Below, in pieces: positions 4,807-23,073 of a stretch of DNA of 24,000 nt. Below the pieces are notes generated by a model. That model saw only the letters and a list, made by a program, of their open reading frames with translations. It was not told where the DNA came from and did no database searches. Location: the NCBI GenBank assembly GCA_018818145.1, contig JAHIST010000036.1:6103-30102 (forward strand). The letters are read 5' to 3'. This DNA is from Patescibacteria group bacterium. GTDB lineage: Bacteria > Patescibacteriota > Minisyncoccia > Portnoybacterales > GWB1-42-6. Position 1 is the stretch's first letter, and the number at the start of each line of letters is the position of its first letter. Both the position numbers and the translations under genes were made by a program.

Positions 4807-4880
4807 TGGCAGGGGCGGAGGGAGTCGGACCCCCGTTATTCGTTTTGGAGACGAATGTAATACCGTTATACCACGCCCCC
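4807..4880 (-). tRNA. trnW: tRNA-Trp(CCA), CCA end encoded
   Basis: Hand-folded cloverleaf: acceptor GGGGGCG/CGCCCCU, anticodon arm UUCGU-CUCCAAA-ACGAA, T arm GGGGG-UCCGACU-CCCUC, 3' GCCA. Confidence 0.93.
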
Positions 4881-5935: not shown

Positions 5936-6188
5936 AGCCGTTGGCCAGAATCGAACTGGCGACCTACTCCTTCATTTGCACCTCTTTTTTTGTTCGCCTA
6001 TAAGAGGATTAGACTGTATCTTCTCCGAAAATATTCGGAGCCCTTGTCAGTCGTTCGAGCGCCTTTTAGGCGCTACGGTCTTGACCAAGCCAGGCCTTTA
6101 ACCGTAATTCGGGATTCATAATGAGATTGCTCTCATGATGGGCAGAATCTCTACCATGGAGTTGCTCTACCGGCTGAGCTACAACGGC
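5936..6188 (-). tRNA. trnT: tRNA-Thr(GGU) interrupted by a 180-nt intron in the anticodon loop
   Basis: The 5' exon is GCCGUUG-UA-GCUC-AGCCGGUA-GAGC-A-ACUCC-AUGGU (6188-6153). The 3' exon is AA-GGAGU-AGGUC-GCCAG-UUCGAUU-CUGGC-CAACGGC-U (5972-5936). All stems pair perfectly. The spliced loop AUGGUAA gives anticodon GGU. Confidence 0.85.
5973..6152 (-). ncRNA. group-I-like intron within tRNA-Thr(GGU)
   Basis: The 5' exon ends in U and the intron ends in G. Hand-fold elements:
- IGS-like GCCCAU pairing with exon AUGGU
- P2-like AUGAGA-GCAA-UCUCAU with a GNRA loop
- P4/P5-like UACGGU-UAAA-GGCC...GGUC-AA-ACCGUA
- P6-like GCGCC-UAAAA-GGCGC
- P7-like GACUG/CAGUC flanking a P8-like CUCCGAA/UUCGGAG hairpin and an A-rich J8/7
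- P9-like CCUCUU/AAGAGG
P3 was not resolved by hand. Confidence 0.65.
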
Positions 6189-6775
6189 AATAAACTTATT
6201 AAAATATTTCTTACCTTGATATTTCCATAATATAAAGTTAACACTCCATATTTGCTTTTATTCCTATATTTACCTAATTTTCCTGTAATGGAAACAAACG
6301 GTTTGTAAAATTGCCCCTTCTTGATTCCTAATCGTTTCATCCAATATTCCCGGGCTTCTTCTATATCAATATCCGTAAAAGTATGCAAATGAAATTTCAG
6401 ATCATCTTTGCTAATACTAAAGAACTTGACTAAAAACTCAATAAATTTTTTTAATAATGCGGGGTCTGAATTCCCAATCCTTACTGTAGTTTTGTTTGCT
6501 TTGGTACCCTCTCCCCAATACAGGCCTATCCCCAATCCGAATAATTCTGCTTCTTTTAGATTTTTTGGTAAAACAAAGCGAAATGGATCGCCTTCGGGAT
6601 TATGCTTGATATAGATTGCTTCACTTATTGATCTCTTTGAAATTCTGTATTTAAATAACCAGTAATTTATTCTGCCTGCCGAACAGCGAAATTTTTTGGC
6701 GATCTCGGTAACTGATTTTTGCTCTTTGCTATATAGTCTTAATAGCTCCTCTTTTTTTATAGCTTGTATTTTCAT
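6179..6775 (-). CDS. LAGLIDADG-type homing endonuclease-like protein with N-terminal HTH
   Basis: 198-aa ORF with an ATG start in an AT-rich segment. LFGLGIGLYWGEGTK followed by RIGNSDPALLKKFIEFL fits the single-motif LAGLIDADG pattern. SVTEIAKKFRCSAGRINYWL is HTH-like. The last three codons and the stop overlap tRNA positions 1-10. Confidence 0.7.
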   Translation of the reverse strand: MKIQAIKKEELLRLYSKEQKSVTEIAKKFRCSAGRINYWLFKYRISKRSISEAIYIKHNPEGDPFRFVLPKNLKEAELFGLGIGLYWGEGTKANKTTVRIGNSDPALLKKFIEFLVKFFSISKDDLKFHLHTFTDIDIEEAREYWMKRLGIKKGQFYKPFVSITGKLGKYRNKSKYGVLTLYYGNIKVRNILISLLPL

Positions 6776-6855: not shown

Positions 6856-7887
6856 TTAACTCTCTGGATACGCTTCTTTTATCAAATTTTGCTTGTCTTT
6901 AAAATATTCGCGCACGGGTTTCAAAATTTCCGCAATTTCGCACGCTACGGTTTTTTTCAAATCCTGCGGATGCAATTTTTTGGCCAAAAAATCTTTTTCC
7001 AAATCAGTATAAGTTTTGTATTCAATATTGCCGCCGAATTTTTCCGGCCGCTCAACGGAGAACAGTTCTCCGTTATCTTCTTTCAAAACCGTCAAAACAT
7101 ATTTCACAAAAGCCATTATGCCGTTGTCCGTTAAATCCCCTTCCGGACAATAGGCTTTGTTAATTTTAGCGGTAATATCAGCCTCGCTGTCAAGCAAATC
7201 AATTTTTGAACTGGGGTCGGAAGCACTCATTTTCCCGCCCATAATTCCGGGCAGCATCGGCGTCATAATTTCCACGCGCTTTTTTTGTCCAATTTTTGGA
7301 TGCGACTCGCGCGCAAAACCAAAAATTTTTCGCTGGTCAGTGCCGCCGTATTGAATATCCGCTCCTAAATATTCTTCGTCAAGCGTCTGTAAAATTGGAT
7401 ATAAAAATCCGCTCAATTTGGGATTTTCGCCAAATTTGACGACTTCCGCAGCCGCGTGTTTGGCGCGGTCAGCGCTGGTTAAGGCCGCCAACCGATAAAC
7501 ATCCAGCGTATATTTTTTATCCAGCTCAAAATCAGAGCCTTTTACAAATTCAATTTTTGAAACATCAACGCCAATAGCCCCATAAAGTTCGGCTAGCTCT
7601 ATTTTGTAAAATTCAACTCGCTTATCCAAAAGCTCAAAGGGTGTCTTCGTATTATCCAAATGGGCGTGAATGTCGGCCAGAAGAATTTTCACGCGCAAAC
7701 CGGCGTCCACAAAATCCTTAATTTTTATCGCCGGAATCATATAGCCGATGTGCGGCCGACCGGTGGGCGCGTAGCCTAAATAAACCACCGGCTCTTTTTT
7801 GGTTTTTAAAAGTTCCGCCAACTCTTCCTCCGTCAAAATCTCTTCAGTGTTGCGTTTGATTAAATTTAGTTTTTGTTCAATCGTCAT
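6856..7887 (-). CDS. tyrS: tyrosyl-tRNA synthetase, archaeal/eukaryotic-type (short form without S4-like C-terminal domain)
   Basis: 343-aa ORF, collinear with my recollection of M. jannaschii TyrRS: LIKRNTEEILTEEEL, PTGRPHIGY (HIGH), LLADIHAHL, YTLDVYRLA, YPILQ, KMSAS (KMSKS), KAYCP, RPEKFGGNIEY, LHPQDLK. Confidence 0.93.
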   Translation of the reverse strand: MTIEQKLNLIKRNTEEILTEEELAELLKTKKEPVVYLGYAPTGRPHIGYMIPAIKIKDFVDAGLRVKILLADIHAHLDNTKTPFELLDKRVEFYKIELAELYGAIGVDVSKIEFVKGSDFELDKKYTLDVYRLAALTSADRAKHAAAEVVKFGENPKLSGFLYPILQTLDEEYLGADIQYGGTDQRKIFGFARESHPKIGQKKRVEIMTPMLPGIMGGKMSASDPSSKIDLLDSEADITAKINKAYCPEGDLTDNGIMAFVKYVLTVLKEDNGELFSVERPEKFGGNIEYKTYTDLEKDFLAKKLHPQDLKKTVACEIAEILKPVREYFKDKQNLIKEAYPES

Positions 7888-7988
7888 TTCAAATACTGGG
7901 TAATTAATGCTTATTTATGACAAAAAGCGTTCCTCCTAAATAGGGTAACTGTTTTTGCGGTCTTTTTCAAGGGCGCGATTATCCCGCC

Positions 7989-8693
7989 CTATCGCCCTCG
8001 TCGTATCTCCCGCTTGGAAAATTCCTCCAAAATTGATTCAAATTCACTTTTGGTGAAATCCGGCCAATAGGTTTTGGGAAAAAACCATTCGCTGTAAACT
8101 GTTTGCCAGGGCAAAAAATTTGATGTGCGAATTTCGCCGGAAGTACGAATTACCAGCTGCGGGTCGGGCAATCCGGCCGTCCAAAGAAATTGAGAAAATT
8201 GCTCTTCGGTCAAACCAGAGATTTCTTCTTTGGTTTTTTCGCTGCTGACTTTTTTAACCGCCTCCAAAATCTCCGCCCGGCCGCCATAAGACAGGCAAAT
8301 AATAAAATTGATGCCGAAAAAATTAGCAGTCGCTTTTTCTAATTTTTTTATAACCATTCTAATGGCCGGCGAAAAGCGCCCAATTTGGCCGACAAATCTG
8401 ATCCGGGCTTTTTCTTTTATTAACGCCCCGGCGCCCTGCCCAAAAGTCCGTAAAAAAAGCTTCATCAGGTAAGCCACCTCTTCTTTTTTGCGTATCCAGT
8501 TTTCGGTTGAAAAAGCGTAAATATAGACGGTGGAAATGCCAAATTCTCTTGCCCATCGCAAAACTTCTTTTAGTTTATCATAGCCAAACTTATGGCCCTT
8601 CATGACTGACAGTCCCCGTTCGCTGGCCCAGCGGCGATTACCGTCAATAATAATGCCGATTGATTGGGGGTATTTGGTTTGATTATTTTTCAT
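7989..8693 (-). CDS. uppS: undecaprenyl-diphosphate synthase (cis-prenyltransferase)
   Basis: IIIDGNRRWA, YAFSTENW and RTSGEIRTSNFLPWQ are family signatures. I chose the ATG at 8693 over the track's TTG at 8747, which lies inside acyP. The chosen start overlaps the acyP stop by 11 nt. Confidence 0.9.
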   Translation of the reverse strand: MKNNQTKYPQSIGIIIDGNRRWASERGLSVMKGHKFGYDKLKEVLRWAREFGISTVYIYAFSTENWIRKKEEVAYLMKLFLRTFGQGAGALIKEKARIRFVGQIGRFSPAIRMVIKKLEKATANFFGINFIICLSYGGRAEILEAVKKVSSEKTKEEISGLTEEQFSQFLWTAGLPDPQLVIRTSGEIRTSNFLPWQTVYSEWFFPKTYWPDFTKSEFESILEEFSKREIRRGR

Positions 8694-8964
8694 ATAATAT
8701 TTTAAAATCTGAAAATTCTGATGTCTCCGGCAGCCATTTTTCTTCAAGCCTGTCCACGCGCGCTAAAACAGGTCCTTTTTTTAAATCTTCCAGCAACAGA
8801 CTAAGTTTTTCCTCTTCTCCTTCCGCCGTCACAAAAACCGAACCGTCTTTTAAATTTTTCACCGTCCCGGCCAAACCAAGTCTGCTGGCCCTACGTTGGG
8901 CAAAATCGCGAAACATTACCAGCTGGACCCGGCCGAAAACAATACATTCCAATCGCTTTTTCAT
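8683..8964 (-). CDS. acyP: acylphosphatase
   Basis: VFGRVQLVMFRDFAQRRASRLGLAGTVKNLKDGSVFVTAEGEE matches the acylphosphatase signature. I prefer the ATG at 8964 to the GTG at 8970. Confidence 0.85.
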   Translation of the reverse strand: MKKRLECIVFGRVQLVMFRDFAQRRASRLGLAGTVKNLKDGSVFVTAEGEEEKLSLLLEDLKKGPVLARVDRLEEKWLPETSEFSDFKILYEK

Positions 8965-9239
8965 AAACACTTAACCAGAGTATTTTTTATTATTGCCTTT
9001 GCCGCGCTCTATCTAAAAACCGCCCCAAAGGCGATTTTCCCCTTTATACTTAAGCAATTTAAACCGAACGAATTACTCTTGCCTCGGCTAATTAAAGTCC
9101 CTTTTATAAATTTAGTGTCCACTGCACCGATCTGGGACCCATGGACTTTGAATCCAGTGGTGGGTTTTTCAGCCTTCCTTTATTATCTCTTGCACAAGCC
9201 CCCGGTCGGGGTGTTTGTTCGGAAAACCCAAGACAAAAC

Positions 9240-9788
9240 TTAATGGGGCAGATTAGCAATAAGACTGGTAAATATGGGATGTTGGCTTAAAAATTTATAT
9301 TCCAGCAATTTGTTCACGATAAAAAAATCTTTGATTTCCGAGGACAGCTCTTTGGGTCCGGTGAATAAATCTTGGGCTTGTTTTATCGAATCCTTAAAAT
9401 ATTCGCTCAAACTCTCAGTATCCACTTTTTGTTCCAAATAATTAATTATTTTTTTGAATTCTCCTCTGTCCAGCCATACCCCGTGACAGGAATTACAGAC
9501 GTCTACTTGAATATCTGATTTATTATAATTAACTTGATATAGATTTTTATCGCAAACCGGACAAATCTTTCCTGAAAAAACAACCTTAAAGCCTTCTTTG
9601 TTTTTCCAAAGGTCAATATCAAGCCATTCTAAAAATTTATCCTCCTCGGCTACCGTCTTACTCAATTCATCGCGATTAAACCAAAGTCCTTGACATTGGT
9701 CGCACCTGGCGACTTTAGTTTTATGAAATGCAATCTGCCTTAAACTATCACTTTTACAATTTGGACAAACCAAAATATTTTTTTCCAT
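9240..9788 (-). CDS. tandem zinc-ribbon protein (TFIIB-type zf domain x2), hypothetical
   Basis: 182-aa ORF with an ATG start. It has two CPxC...C(D/N)xC(Q/H)G(L/V)W(F/L)(N/D)R modules (CPNCKS..CDQCQGLWFNRDE and CPVCDK..CNSCHGVWLDRGE). Confidence 0.7.
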   Translation of the reverse strand: MEKNILVCPNCKSDSLRQIAFHKTKVARCDQCQGLWFNRDELSKTVAEEDKFLEWLDIDLWKNKEGFKVVFSGKICPVCDKNLYQVNYNKSDIQVDVCNSCHGVWLDRGEFKKIINYLEQKVDTESLSEYFKDSIKQAQDLFTGPKELSSEIKDFFIVNKLLEYKFLSQHPIFTSLIANLPH

Positions 9789-9834
9789 ATGAAGGATTCC
9801 TTTTTTATTATAATTTATTTCTTAACTTACGAGG

Positions 9835-9907
9835 TCCAGGGGGTAGGAGTCGAACCTACCTGAAACGGTTTTACAGACCGCCGCATCGACCGCTCTGCCA
9901 CCCCTGG
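9835..9907 (-). tRNA. trnY: tRNA-Tyr(GUA) with C1-G72, A73 and a 5-nt variable loop (archaeal/eukaryal-like architecture)
   Basis: Fold: CCAGGGG-UG-GCAG-AGCGGUCG-AUGC-G-GCGGU-CUGUAAA-ACCGU-UUCAG-GUAGG-UUCGACU-CCUAC-CCCCUGG-A. It lacks the long variable arm that typifies bacterial tRNA-Tyr. Confidence 0.9.
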
Positions 9908-9952
9908 GTCTAAATAACCAGTATGTGCAAGAGTCGCCCCGCAGCAGCGGGG

Positions 9953-10029
9953 TTACAGACCGCCGCATCGACCGCTCTGCTTGCCTCGCCGAAGTCCCGC
10001 AGACGGGACGAAGGCGGGCCACCTCCTGG
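9953..10029 (-). pseudogene. partial 5'-half copy of tRNA-Tyr carrying a ~40-nt GC-rich hairpin insertion in the D-stem
   Basis: A 28-nt perfect direct repeat (9953-9980 = 9871-9898) covers the D-arm through anticodon-loop nt 37. The upstream acceptor-like CCAGGAGG-UG-GC is followed by the insertion CCGCCUUC-GUCCCGUCUGCGGGAC-UUCGGCGAGGC. The copy stops after CUGUAA and has no T arm or 3' acceptor. Confidence 0.6.
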
Positions 10030-10173: not shown

Positions 10174-10403
10174 AGCCGAGGGCGAGATTCGAACTCGCGG
10201 CCAGCGGTTTACAAAACCGCTGCTCTACTTCACCCCGCCATCTTTTATCTAGAGCCACCTCTCGGGCTCGAACCGAGAACCTGATGCTTACAAAGCAACT
10301 GCTCTGCCAATTGAGCTAAGGTGGCAAAAGATGGCGGGGCAAGCTGCCGCCCCGACACGACGTCGGGGCGAGCCTCGCCCTTTTGGGCGGGAGCTACCTC
10401 GGC
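10174..10403 (-). pseudogene. interrupted (split or intron-containing) tRNA-Thr(UGU): a 13-nt 5' piece and a 59-nt 3' piece separated by a 158-nt D-loop insertion
   Basis: The 5' piece is GCCGAGG-UA-GCUC (10403-10391). The 3' piece is UGAAGUA-GAGC-A-GCGGU-UUUGUAA-ACCGC-UGGCC-GCGAG-UUCGAAU-CUCGC-CCUCGGC-U (10232-10174). The acceptor, D, anticodon and T stems would all pair perfectly once the insertion is ignored. Confidence 0.5.
10253..10325 (-). tRNA. trnT: tRNA-Thr(UGU), intact, embedded in the insertion of the interrupted tRNA-Thr(UGU)
   Basis: Fold: GCCACCU-UA-GCUC-AAUUGGCA-GAGC-A-GUUGC-UUUGUAA-GCAUC-AGGUU-CUCGG-UUCGAGC-CCGAG-AGGUGGC-U. There is one U-U mismatch in the anticodon stem. Confidence 0.93.
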
Positions 10404-14203: not shown

Positions 14204-14464
14204 ATGAAAAAAGACATTCACCCAACCTATTATCCCGAAGCCGTTGCCAAATGCGCCTGCGGCAATACTTTTAAGGTCGGCTCCACCAAGCCCGAACTTA
14301 ATGTTGAAATTTGTTCGGCCTGCCATCCTTTTTATACCGGCAAAGAAAAACTAATTGACACGGCCGGCCGCGTTGAAAGATACCGGAAACTGCAGACGAG
14401 AGGCAAAGAAATGCAAGCCAAAAAACCGGTTAAAAAAATCCGGGTTAAAAAACAAAAAAAATGA
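14204..14464 (+). CDS. rpmE: 50S ribosomal protein L31 (Zn-binding type) with Lys-rich C-terminal tail
   Basis: [23 protein letters not shown]...[11 protein letters not shown] is the L31 signature with its CxC...CxxC pattern. The stop overlaps the prfA start (ATGA). Confidence 0.93.
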
Positions 14465-15207
14465 ATGTGCAAAGCAAAGGAATTATAATGGAAATCCGCG
14501 CCGGAACCGGAGGCGAAGAAGCGGCTATTTTTGCGGCTGACCTCTTTCGAATGTATACTAAGTACGCCCAATCTCAAAATTGGGGTTTTTCTATTATAGA
14601 CAAAAGTTTAACCACGCTGGGCGGAATTAAAGAAGTGGTAATAGAAATTAATGGCCCGGAAGTTTATAACCAACTTCAATATGAAAGCGGCGTTCACCGG
14701 GTACAGCGCGTGCCTAAAACCGAAAAAAATGGCCGGATCCATACCTCAACCGCTTCCGTGGCTATTTTGCCAAAGATTGAAGCCACCGAAATCAAAATTA
14801 ATTCGCAAGACATAAAGATTGATATGGCGCGCTCCTCGGGCCCGGGCGGACAAAACGTTAATAAACGATCCACCGCCGTTAGGATCACCCACTTACCGAC
14901 CAATATTGTTGTCTTTTCTCAAACCGAAAGATCTCAGCCGCAAAATAAAGAAATTGCTATGGAAATTCTACGAGCCAAGCTTTATGAGCGGGCCAACCAG
15001 CAGCAAATGTCACAATTAAGCCAGGAGCGGCGAGATCAGATTGGCACGGCTGATCGCTCCGAAAAAATACGGACATATAACTTTCCGCAAAACCGCCTGA
15101 CCGACCATCGTATTGGCAAAAGCTGGCACGATTTAGAATCAATTATAGACGGCCGGCTCGAGACGGTTATTAAGGCATTCCGCAAAAACGAAGCTCCTAA
15201 AAATTGA
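14461..15207 (+). CDS. prfA: peptide chain release factor 1 lacking the N-terminal domain 1 (248 aa)
   Basis: [39 protein letters not shown] (PxT-type codon-recognition motif, so RF1 class) and SGPGGQNVN (GGQ). The sequence begins where E. coli RF1 is at about residue 105, by my recollection. Confidence 0.88.
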
Positions 15208-21816: not shown

Positions 21817-23073
21817 TTATAGTTCTATGAACCCTTTCTTAATATTTTCCACAATCAATTCCTCCAGCTTATCCTCCCCCATAAATTCAATAAAAATTTT
21901 ATTCCAGAGCGCTTCTTGTTGATGATAAAGATATTTGCCCAATCCCCCGTGCGTTAGCGAAATTACATTATCCAATAGGTCAAAACTGACGATTTCCTCT
22001 CCTTTTTTGCCGGCCGGAAAAATTTCGCCGGCAAAATCGTCTATGCCGCGCCAAAAATCCATTTTAATTTGCGGATATTTTTGCGCCAGTACGTCCATTT
22101 CCTTTTCCGCTTTCAGCCAATGGATGGTTTCAGGATTAACATGCGGTTCAAATAATCTCGGGTCTTGCGGGTCAATTTTAGCCAGATAGCGCTGGATAAT
22201 GCGCCAATATAATTTGTCTTTTGGCAGGACGGCCGACCCGACCGCGCCAGAAAGAAGGCTCACTAAATTTGAGCCAAAATTTGGCAAGCCAGAATATTTT
22301 CTGAAAAGTTCTGAATAAAAATCTATCTCGTGCAAGTAGTGCAAAATCAGGCTAAAAGTTTCCAGAGACTGCCCGGCAAAATTCTCCTTTTTGACCGGAA
22401 TAACAAACACCAAACCAACTTCTTTCAAATGACTGATATTGTGCAGTTTTTTGCCTACAAACTTTTCGGCGATTGCCAGCCACTTTTCACCCAGAACCCG
22501 CACGCGAATTTCCCTTTCTTCAAAATGCTCGGCAATCAGATCGTTATAGGGCCGGAAAAAAACTTCGTTTAGCCAGCGTTCGTTTTCCACAAAGCGCAAA
22601 GCGGCAAAAATTTCATAAAGATCTTCTTTTTCCAGAAGCTCTTCTGCGGTTTTATAGCCCAAAACTTCCAAAATATTTTTAGGCGGATTAAGAATTAGAA
22701 AGGTCTTCAATTTCTCTTCTTTTAAAAAATAGCCGGGTTTCAAATCGGCCGTGTTTTTTATTATATCAATCATTTTGCTGCAGCCAGTCTGTTGACTAAA
22801 ATCTGGTTTTCCCAAAAATTCATAAAAAACTTCGTCGGCTTCTTTGGTTTTTTTGAGTAATTCTGCCTCTACCAATTGGGCATCGGCTTTTTCTTCAACA
22901 ATCCTCATCTCCTTTAGCTTGCGGCTAACTATTTTTTTGTTTTCCTCAAAAATTTTTCCGGCCACATTTTTTTTGCCCGTGATTTTTTCCATATTGACGA
23001 ATAAATCTGCCAGCACCGCTTCGGGCGTTCTTAATAACTTGGCTATTTTTTGAATTGATTGTATCTCTGGCAT
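21817..23073 (-). CDS. conserved-looking hypothetical protein, 418 aa, no family recognised
   Basis: Long ORF with an ATG start and composition like the neighbouring core genes. It has several His-containing motifs (HNISHLKE, LHYLHEIDFY, HVNPETIHW, LTHGG). It lies between fba and the pfkB kinase. Confidence 0.65.
   Translation of the reverse strand: MPEIQSIQKIAKLLRTPEAVLADLFVNMEKITGKKNVAGKIFEENKKIVSRKLKEMRIVEEKADAQLVEAELLKKTKEADEVFYEFLGKPDFSQQTGCSKMIDIIKNTADLKPGYFLKEEKLKTFLILNPPKNILEVLGYKTAEELLEKEDLYEIFAALRFVENERWLNEVFFRPYNDLIAEHFEEREIRVRVLGEKWLAIAEKFVGKKLHNISHLKEVGLVFVIPVKKENFAGQSLETFSLILHYLHEIDFYSELFRKYSGLPNFGSNLVSLLSGAVGSAVLPKDKLYWRIIQRYLAKIDPQDPRLFEPHVNPETIHWLKAEKEMDVLAQKYPQIKMDFWRGIDDFAGEIFPAGKKGEEIVSFDLLDNVISLTHGGLGKYLYHQQEALWNKIFIEFMGEDKLEELIVENIKKGFIEL

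Follow-up and report, generated by a model that had tools for sequence, protein, structure and literature searches.

The rules by which a tyrosyl-tRNA synthetase (TyrRS) recognises tRNA-Tyr were long held to be fixed within each domain of life and to bar the transfer of an archaeal TyrRS into bacteria. The bacterial enzyme holds the long variable arm of tRNA-Tyr by means of an S4-like C-terminal domain. In this work, we analysed a stretch of 24,000 nt from a Patescibacteria group bacterium (assembly GCA_018818145.1, contig JAHIST010000036.1), referred to below as the window, which carries a TyrRS gene of archaeal/eukaryal type (6856..7887, minus strand) and a short tRNA-Tyr(GUA) gene (9835..9907, minus strand). 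An archaeal-style Tyr pair in the candidate phyla radiation (CPR) is not new, because CPR bacteria with archaea/eukarya-type TyrRS and C1-G72 tRNA-Tyr have been published (Mukai, Reynolds, Crnkovic, Soll, Life 2017;7:8; PMC5370408). According to the text of that paper, the CPR TyrRS was predicted to be of DPANN origin and to be without the S4-like domain, the CPR tRNA-Tyr is of bacterial or archaeal origin and occurs in arm-bearing and arm-less forms, and there were several independent acquisitions, with one TyrRS replaced by another at a fixed locus. The lineages named in its text and legends are Roizman-, Davies-, Shapiro-, Wolfe- and Andersenbacteria, and the phyla OD1, OP11, WS6 and WWE3. 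Neither its text nor its legends (figures not included) name Portnoybacteria, and its text makes no mention of a TyrRS lying between tRNA-Tyr and tRNA-Thr(GGU) or of two unrelated enzymes having almost one and the same short tRNA. No later primary work on CPR Tyr pairs of archaeal identity came up in a literature search. Since CPR bacteria break the domain-fixed Tyr identity, they bear on the rewiring of the genetic-code machinery and offer natural candidates for orthogonal pairs, a point already made in 2017, and the window adds another lineage together with a clearer local picture of the switch.

The window pair was compared with described systems. With the canonical bacterial TyrRS/tRNA-Tyr (T. 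thermophilus TyrRS, 1h3e, and the pairs of the sister genomes G008 and G012) it shares the class Ic fold, the anticodon GUA and the slot after tRNA-Thr(UGU), but the canonical enzyme has about 400-412 aa with an S4-like domain, and its tRNA has 84 nt, G1-C72 and a long arm. With the pair of M. jannaschii, the classical orthogonal pair for E. coli, it has in common C1-G72, A73 and G34, a short enzyme without a domain for the long arm, and a short variable loop. It differs from this pair in that the M. jannaschii enzyme is more distant (E 7e-65), the window tRNA has bacterial-looking D and T arms, and the host possesses tRNA-Pro with C1-G72/A73. Archaeal tRNA-Pro is not known to carry C1-G72/A73.

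We consider it very probable that Tyr decoding in this Portnoybacteria-like CPR host was converted from bacterial to archaeal/eukaryal identity rules by means of an enzyme imported from DPANN archaea and a remodelled resident tRNA. The steps, whose order we infer, would be as follows. The housekeeping TyrRS would be the short DPANN-derived enzyme without the S4-like domain, and by homology it would charge tRNA-Tyr by using Arg186, close to which His144 lies, to read C1-G72 and A73, and Phe284 and Asp309 to read G34. The resident bacterial tRNA-Tyr would have lost its long variable arm and acquired C1-G72 at the top of its acceptor stem. The TyrRS gene would have settled in the Thr(UGU)-Tyr-Thr(GGU)-Trp cluster of tRNA genes, and the bacterial TyrRS would have been lost.

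An archaeal-type TyrRS of likely DPANN origin

The TyrRS of the window has 343 aa and matched the profile NF006330 (archaeal-type tyrosine--tRNA ligase, PRK08560) with 350.5 bits, its residues 1-340 aligning to positions 1-339 of the 342 in the profile. The cut-off of this profile is 220 bits, which among our control genomes was passed by the four archaea only. The sole Pfam match was PF00579, the class Ic catalytic family, at residues 30-322. The enzyme ends 3 residues past the end of the family profile, and because it stops where NF006330 stops, the S4-like C-terminal domain is absent; the bacterial TyrRS of sister genomes are 60-70 aa longer. The initial annotation, made from the letters of the window, had described the enzyme as collinear with archaeal TyrRS and without an S4-like domain, and the profile match from end to end agrees with this description.

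Among solved structures, the best relative was human mini-TyrRS (1n3l; E 1e-103, residues 4-342), followed by yeast TyrRS (2dlc; E 2e-95) and by the A. fulgidus-type and M. jannaschii enzymes (E 1e-72 to 7e-65), while bacterial T. thermophilus TyrRS (1h3e) was matched over its catalytic half only (E 2e-14). The ranking was thus human before yeast before archaeal, with the bacterial structure far behind.

Human, yeast and DPANN TyrRS are collinear with the window enzyme over the full length and agree with it in the residues that matter for function. The HIGH motif is H46-I-G-Y49 and the KMSKS motif is K219-M-S-A-S223, the yeast enzyme likewise having KMSAS. Y36 and D170, which bind the tyrosine hydroxyl, align with human Tyr39 and Asp173 and are kept. 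The residues that contact the tRNA were mapped through the yeast alignment onto the roles given for three-kingdom TyrRS complexes (PMC1934993). In these complexes, yeast Arg193 and M. jannaschii Arg174 contact C1 (plus A73 in yeast), yeast Arg151 and M. jannaschii Arg132 contact G72, and G34 is stacked upon by yeast Phe296 and hydrogen-bonded by yeast Asp321 (PMC1934993). The counterpart of yeast Arg193 / M. jannaschii Arg174 in the window enzyme is R186, which lies within the invariant DQRKI motif and is itself invariant in the clade. F284 and D309 correspond to yeast Phe296 and Asp321 and are both invariant in the TyrRS alignment; together with P307, they make up the residues shared with the human, yeast and DPANN enzymes for G34. 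Based on this alignment, the reading of the acceptor end is plausibly, though not residue for residue, conserved in the window TyrRS. The eukaryotic cytoplasmic enzymes differ from the window enzyme, which is encoded by a bacterium, is without the EMAP-II-like C-terminal extension, and has His144 in place of yeast Arg151 (Lys in human).

Among species representatives of GTDB, close relatives of the window TyrRS (67-81% identity) were found in eleven CPR genomes, including one Yanofskybacteria genome, and the nearest sequences are named Candidatus Portnoybacteria / Parcubacteria. The next relatives, at 54-61% identity, were dozens of DPANN sequences (Aenigmatarchaeota, Woesearchaeota, Nanoarchaeota, Iainarchaeum and Pacearchaeota). 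A maximum-likelihood tree with 92 rows was built by a quick IQ-TREE search, with support from the Shimodaira-Hasegawa-like approximate likelihood ratio test (SH-aLRT) only. In this tree, the 19 CPR sequences grouped as a single clade (SH-aLRT 100) within the DPANN radiation, where the human and yeast TyrRS fell as well. The phylogeny therefore places the enzyme among DPANN archaeal TyrRS and not among bacterial forms, and the window TyrRS is likely derived from DPANN archaea.

A class I tRNA-Tyr bearing C1-G72 plus A73

The tRNA-Tyr(GUA) at 9835..9907 (minus strand) is 73 nt long and was recognised by both ARAGORN and Rfam (RF00005, 55.6 bits). As read from the alignment, its acceptor stem consists of C1-G72, C2-G71, A3-U70 and then four G-C pairs (G4-7/C66-69), and its discriminator is A73. 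The variable loop between the anticodon stem and the T stem is UUCAG, 5 nt, which is the class I form, and the tRNA is accordingly short compared with the 84 nt of the long-arm forms in sister genomes. The D arm, which has a 3-bp stem with G13.A22 and a long loop, resembles that of bacterial class II tRNA-Tyr. C1-G72, A73 and the 5-nt variable loop were also what had been noted at first from the window, and ARAGORN and the Rfam alignment bear this out.

Tyrosine pairs in related genomes

To describe the distribution of the two forms, 59 species representatives of the order were surveyed with NF006330, ARAGORN and a covariance model built from tRNA-Tyr genes, and a pattern scan for tRNA-Tyr was carried out in the 16 genomes of the window's own family (f1). 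The ancestral state is the gene order tRNA-Thr(UGU)-tRNA-Tyr-tRNA-Thr(GGU)-tRNA-Trp with a tRNA-Tyr of 83-84 nt, G1-C72 and a long arm, the TyrRS of bacterial architecture (~400 aa) being encoded elsewhere. In the sister genomes that have a bacterial TyrRS (G008, G012 and most of the order), the slot after tRNA-Thr(UGU) is filled by the 84-nt G1-C72 long-arm tRNA-Tyr, and the order Thr(UGU)-Tyr is preserved in all relatives examined.

Within family f1, 10 of the 16 genomes have the enzyme type of the window (74-88% identity) together with a 73-nt C1-G72/A73 tRNA-Tyr in the same slot, two incomplete assemblies show one of the two partners, and G008 and G012 retain the bacterial TyrRS and the long-arm tRNA-Tyr. 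Two assemblies of the family that are 100% complete (3 and 8 contigs) contain the archaeal-type TyrRS and the short tRNA only. Given that a bacterial pair in some species and an archaeal-style pair in others occupy the same slot within one family, this family is a good natural system for studying the course of the switch.

A probably remodelled rather than imported tRNA

The core of the window tRNA-Tyr (positions 8-65, 58 positions) was compared with candidate sources. It agreed at 47-50 of 58 positions with the long-arm tRNA-Tyr of sister genomes in the same order, at 46 of 58 with the best non-Tyr tRNA compared (tRNA-Ser), at 41-44 of 58 with tRNA-Cys, and at fewer than 40 of 58 with a DPANN tRNA-Tyr that lies beside a related TyrRS (L122). 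An intermediate form was present in a genome of another family, G096 (L227, G096:C5 2261..2345), whose tRNA-Tyr has C1-G72 and the acceptor strand CCGGCGG and keeps its long variable arm. This gene is placed between tRNA-Thr(UGU) and an archaeal-type TyrRS of a second type (type 2, described below). Since the window tRNA-Tyr stands in the ancestral cluster slot and its core is closest to long-arm tRNA-Tyr, an imported enzyme with a remodelled tRNA is a better fit than an imported archaeal tRNA. The window tRNA-Tyr is, judging by these comparisons, best read as a remodelled bacterial tRNA-Tyr and not as an imported archaeal one.

The other route to the same pair would be co-transfer, in which a short tRNA-Tyr of archaeal origin arrived with the TyrRS as one operon and displaced the resident tRNA-Tyr. 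It has in its favour that the two genes are physically linked in some relatives (90 bp apart in G007, about 10-40 bp in G048 and G049). Also in its favour, the short tRNAs from two families have 82-91% identity, whereas those of G048 and G049 reach only 65-72% with the long-arm tRNAs of their own family f7, and those of f1 reach 60-77% with the long-arm tRNAs of f1, which shows a movement of the tRNA gene between lineages. We regard co-transfer as improbable all the same, because the D, anticodon and T arms come nearest to the long-arm tRNA-Tyr of bacteria in the same order and do not resemble the DPANN one, because the D arm with its 3-bp stem and long loop is that of bacterial class II tRNA-Tyr, and because the intermediate of C1-G72 with a long arm exists in G096, such forms also being reported in the text of the 2017 paper (PMC5370408). 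Moreover, the covariance model of the short tRNA ranked no tRNA-Tyr first in five DPANN genomes. A wider search for DPANN tRNA-Tyr, by pattern scans, a covariance model on five DPANN genomes and 16 extra regions, yielded other isoacceptors or false matches.

The initial annotation had proposed that enzyme and tRNA switched identity rules together, by co-transfer or co-evolution. The joint switch stood, as no canonical bacterial pair is left in the genome; as to its route, the results favour an imported enzyme with a remodelled bacterial tRNA and speak against co-transfer of an archaeal tRNA.

Another source of the short tRNA was considered when the tRNA-Cys of G013 and G015 reached 72-80 bits with the short-tRNA-Tyr covariance model, which prompted the idea that it had arisen from tRNA-Cys(GCA) by a one-base change of the anticodon. 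This candidate was rejected, the core agreement with tRNA-Cys (41-44/58) being below that with long-arm tRNA-Tyr (47-50/58).

A single tyrosine system in the host genome

The host assembly comprises 866 kb in 99 contigs, with an estimated completeness of 95% and contamination of 4%, and is typical of Patescibacteria (CPR). The 36-kb contig that bears the TyrRS also encodes EF-Ts, ribosomal proteins S2 and L25/TL5, RF-2, UppS and a lytic transglycosylase, and the host is therefore a bacterium. A tRNA scan of the whole genome gave 42-43 tRNA genes with a single tRNA-Tyr, and PF00579 matched two genes in the genome, the window TyrRS and a bacterial-type TrpRS on another contig. When the genome was searched by tblastn with the 405-412-aa enzymes of two sister genomes, neither a bacterial TyrRS nor a pseudogene of it was found, the best hit (E 0.19) being the TrpRS. 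Thus, the genome-wide survey turned up no long-arm G1-C72 tRNA-Tyr and no canonical bacterial TyrRS. Of the two outcomes that the initial annotation had named as refuting it, a canonical bacterial pair in the genome and a TyrRS placed by phylogeny among ordinary bacterial forms, neither appeared.

These results also bear on the idea that the pair is an accessory one, for example for stress or antibiotic tolerance, and that a canonical pair lies in the unassembled 5%. An assembly of 99 contigs at 95% completeness leaves room for it, one related genome (G009) has both an archaeal-type and an intact bacterial-type TyrRS, and double TrpRS systems are known in CPR, as the text of the 2017 paper states (PMC5370408). 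It is nevertheless very unlikely, since ten related genomes have the archaeal-type enzyme and the short tRNA only, two of them being 100% complete, the short tRNA fills the canonical tRNA-Tyr slot instead of standing beside it, and tblastn found no bacterial TyrRS pseudogene in the genome. That an archaeal contig or a chimeric assembly was binned into a bacterial genome can practically be dismissed: CPR and DPANN do co-occur and their bins are sometimes cross-contaminated (text of PMC5370408), and the bin has 4% estimated contamination, but the TyrRS and tRNA-Tyr lie in a 36-kb contig among bacterial UppS, EF-Ts, S2, RF-2, L25 and bacterial-type tRNA genes, the GC content is even along the window, and the same locus recurs in assemblies made independently in different studies.

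Several observations weigh against a conversion of Tyr decoding by an imported DPANN enzyme and a remodelled resident tRNA. With regard to the enzyme, the root of the tree is given by a very distant second type of TyrRS only and the nesting in DPANN depends on that root, so the direction of transfer is likely and not proven. The residue that contacts G72 is not kept, His144 standing at the place of yeast Arg151 and M. jannaschii Arg132 (Lys in human), and the reading of the acceptor end is for this reason not conserved residue for residue. With regard to the tRNA, long-arm tRNA-Tyr leads the best non-Tyr tRNA by a small margin (47-50 versus 46 of 58), and a gap-tolerant alignment somewhat favours longer tRNAs. 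A single DPANN tRNA-Tyr (L122) was recovered, so that the archaeal side of the comparison consists of one sequence and textbook knowledge. The genome is 95% complete and not closed. Finally, C1-G72 and A73 occur as well in all three tRNA-Pro of the genome (C17:6919-6990, C42:277-349 and C55:2256-2327). With such tRNA-Pro in the same cell, the TyrRS must also rely on the anticodon, and the acceptor end is not the sole determinant.

The initial annotation had further expected the pair to be orthogonal to ordinary bacterial Tyr systems. Extrapolating from the known archaeal/eukaryal pairs, which are the only ground for this expectation, the pair would be so; "orthogonality" is a property of the whole cell and not of the Tyr pair alone. 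Separately, the tRNA-Pro that share C1-G72/A73 raise a question of cross-recognition for TyrRS and ProRS.

Different enzymes in the same slot

The archaeal-type TyrRS found are of more than one type. In G007 (L018/L044, G007:C19), a short tRNA-Tyr at 21932..22004, with encoded CCA and the acceptor stem CCGGCGG/CCGCCGG, is followed 90 bp downstream by a TyrRS of the same type as that of the window (type 1), which starts at 22098 and is cut by the contig end. We take this acceptor stem to be that of M. jannaschii tRNA-Tyr, which would speak for co-transfer. A type-2 enzyme was found in G048 and G049 (family f7), in G009 (family f1), in G096 and in three genomes of family f42. The identity of this type to the window enzyme is 29-36%, and that between its members from different families is 53-60%. 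A third type was found in G107. Of 151 genomes sampled evenly from the class, 8 had an archaeal-type TyrRS.

In G048 and G049, the gene order is Thr(UGU), a short C1-G72 tRNA-Tyr, the type-2 TyrRS about 10-40 bp downstream, Thr(GGU) and Trp. In its core, the short tRNA of these two genomes has 82-91% identity with the short tRNAs of family f1 and only 65-72% with the long-arm tRNA-Tyr of family f7, to which they belong, and in family f1 the short tRNAs are 60-77% identical to the long-arm ones. As the short tRNAs are closer to each other across families than to the long-arm forms of their own family, they have a common origin and moved between lineages. Going by the genes that stand together, the re-tooled tRNA-Tyr works with unrelated archaeal-type enzymes.

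G009 (C3:4594-5736 and C10:13039-13773) contains an archaeal-type TyrRS of type 2, after which comes tRNA-Thr(GGU), and, in addition, an intact bacterial-type TyrRS of 404 aa; its tRNA-Tyr was not found in its assembly. A genome with both enzyme types may represent a transitional state.

An archaeal-type TyrRS lies between tRNA-Tyr and tRNA-Thr(GGU) in families f1, f7 (genus g31), f38 and f41, with two unrelated enzymes in this position. The placement of the TyrRS in the Thr-Tyr-Thr-Trp cluster across four families and with two enzymes is possibly a new detail, and it suggests a portable matched module. We put forward only tentatively, as something that may well not be so, that the matched pair is a portable identity module. 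A single recombination between the conserved flanking tRNA genes would then swap in a re-tooled tRNA-Tyr together with a compatible enzyme, both partners would switch at once, and the bacterial TyrRS would be left to decay, of which G009 could be a snapshot. Once the tRNA had adopted archaeal rules, the enzyme could be exchanged for any archaeal-type TyrRS. Types 1 and 2 share only 30-35% identity, yet the short tRNAs that go with them agree at 82-91%.

Gene arrangement and tRNA remains at the locus

Along the minus strand, the locus of the window reads tRNA-Thr(UGU), remains of an old tRNA-Thr, a broken tRNA-Tyr copy, tRNA-Tyr, a zinc-ribbon gene, uppS, TyrRS, an open reading frame (ORF) of 198 aa, tRNA-Thr(GGU), an ORF of 175 aa and tRNA-Trp. 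The ORF at 6179..6775 had no Pfam match at E 0.001. The gene for TyrRS is thus placed within the old tRNA cluster, with tRNA-Tyr on one side and tRNA-Thr(GGU) on the other. In several members of the family, TyrRS, tRNA-Thr(GGU) and tRNA-Trp follow each other directly, and the same order is found in the Yanofskybacteria genome.

The working tRNA-Thr(UGU) at 10253..10325 (minus strand) was found by ARAGORN and scored 63.2 bits with Rfam. Beside it, at 10174..10239 (minus strand; Rfam 35 bits), lie the 3' remains of an older tRNA-Thr(UGU) from which the D arm is missing. A 5' piece, GCCGAGGUAGCUC, that lies at about 10391..10403 (minus strand) matches CCUCGGC, the acceptor 3' strand of this half (AGAGC..CCUCGGC), so that the two halves of the older gene flank the working one on either side. 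The older tRNA-Thr(UGU) is similar to the allele of G004 and G008, and the working copy to the allele found in G011 and G018.

Directly upstream of the working tRNA-Tyr, local alignment to that tRNA revealed a broken copy of the C1 type (9918..10029, minus strand). Its parts are the start CCAGGAGGUGGC, a 37-nt GC-rich module (9981..10017), 28 nt that exactly repeat the stretch from the D arm to the anticodon loop, then a hairpin and a degraded 3' portion with ACUGG as its end. With this second copy broken, the gene at 9835..9907 is indeed the only intact tRNA-Tyr in the window, as had been stated at the outset. The spacer between Thr and Tyr was also considered as the site of a fossil of the ancestral G1-C72 long-arm tRNA-Tyr; this was rejected, since the copy at 9918..10029 is already of the C1 type and the piece at 10174..10239 has the anticodon UGU.

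GC-rich hairpin modules (9981..10017 and 10365..10396) stand in the AT-rich spacers of the tRNA cluster, and copies 88-94% identical to them occur elsewhere in the genome. Such copies lie on other contigs at C28:1299-1342 and C33:3988-4018 and on C52, C88 and C25; blastn placed those of the 9981..10017 module on C28, C33 and C52. Their recurrence suggests that the modules are a small dispersed repeat family, and the hairpin-flanked tRNA debris at the locus hints at frequent turnover.

Between tRNA-Tyr and TyrRS lie the gene of a zinc-ribbon protein (9240..9788, minus strand; PF13453, 1e-26) and that of UppS, the bacterial housekeeping undecaprenyl-diphosphate synthase (7989..8747, minus strand; PF01255, 4e-72; TIGR00055, 235 bits). 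The tRNA-Thr(GGU) at 5936..6188 (minus strand) was recognised by ARAGORN when introns were allowed; its intron of 180 nt is inserted after position 37 and has a group-I-like core (AAGAUACAGUCUAAUCC), the match to RF00028 being weak (14.6 bits). The same intron-bearing tRNA-Thr(GGU) follows the TyrRS in the loci L065, L066, L072, L073 and L224. The last gene of the Thr-Tyr-Thr-Trp cluster is tRNA-Trp(CCA) at 4807..4880 (minus strand; ARAGORN; Rfam 58.9 bits).

Some observations concern other synthetases. Beside the TrpRS gene of the host, on contig C40 of the genome, a ProRS is encoded (L002 60..1286, minus strand) which with 408 aa is much shorter than the typical bacterial ProRS with its editing insertion. 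In long frames of three genomes (G016:C1:90996-91946, G018:C22:7780-8700 and G005:C74:1494-2285), weak piecemeal class Ic matches of 24-35 bits were obtained, with an internal TAA codon in each of the frames of G016 and G005. These frames may be divergent or broken TrpRS, no ordinary TrpRS match being listed for these genomes.

On the plus strand of the window, the RF-2 gene (14204..15207) is divided between two overlapping ORFs: the PCRF domain, from profile position 99 onwards, lies in the ORF 14461..15207, and the N-terminal part lies in the ORF 14204..14464. Such an arrangement resembles the programmed +1 frameshift that prfB usually has.

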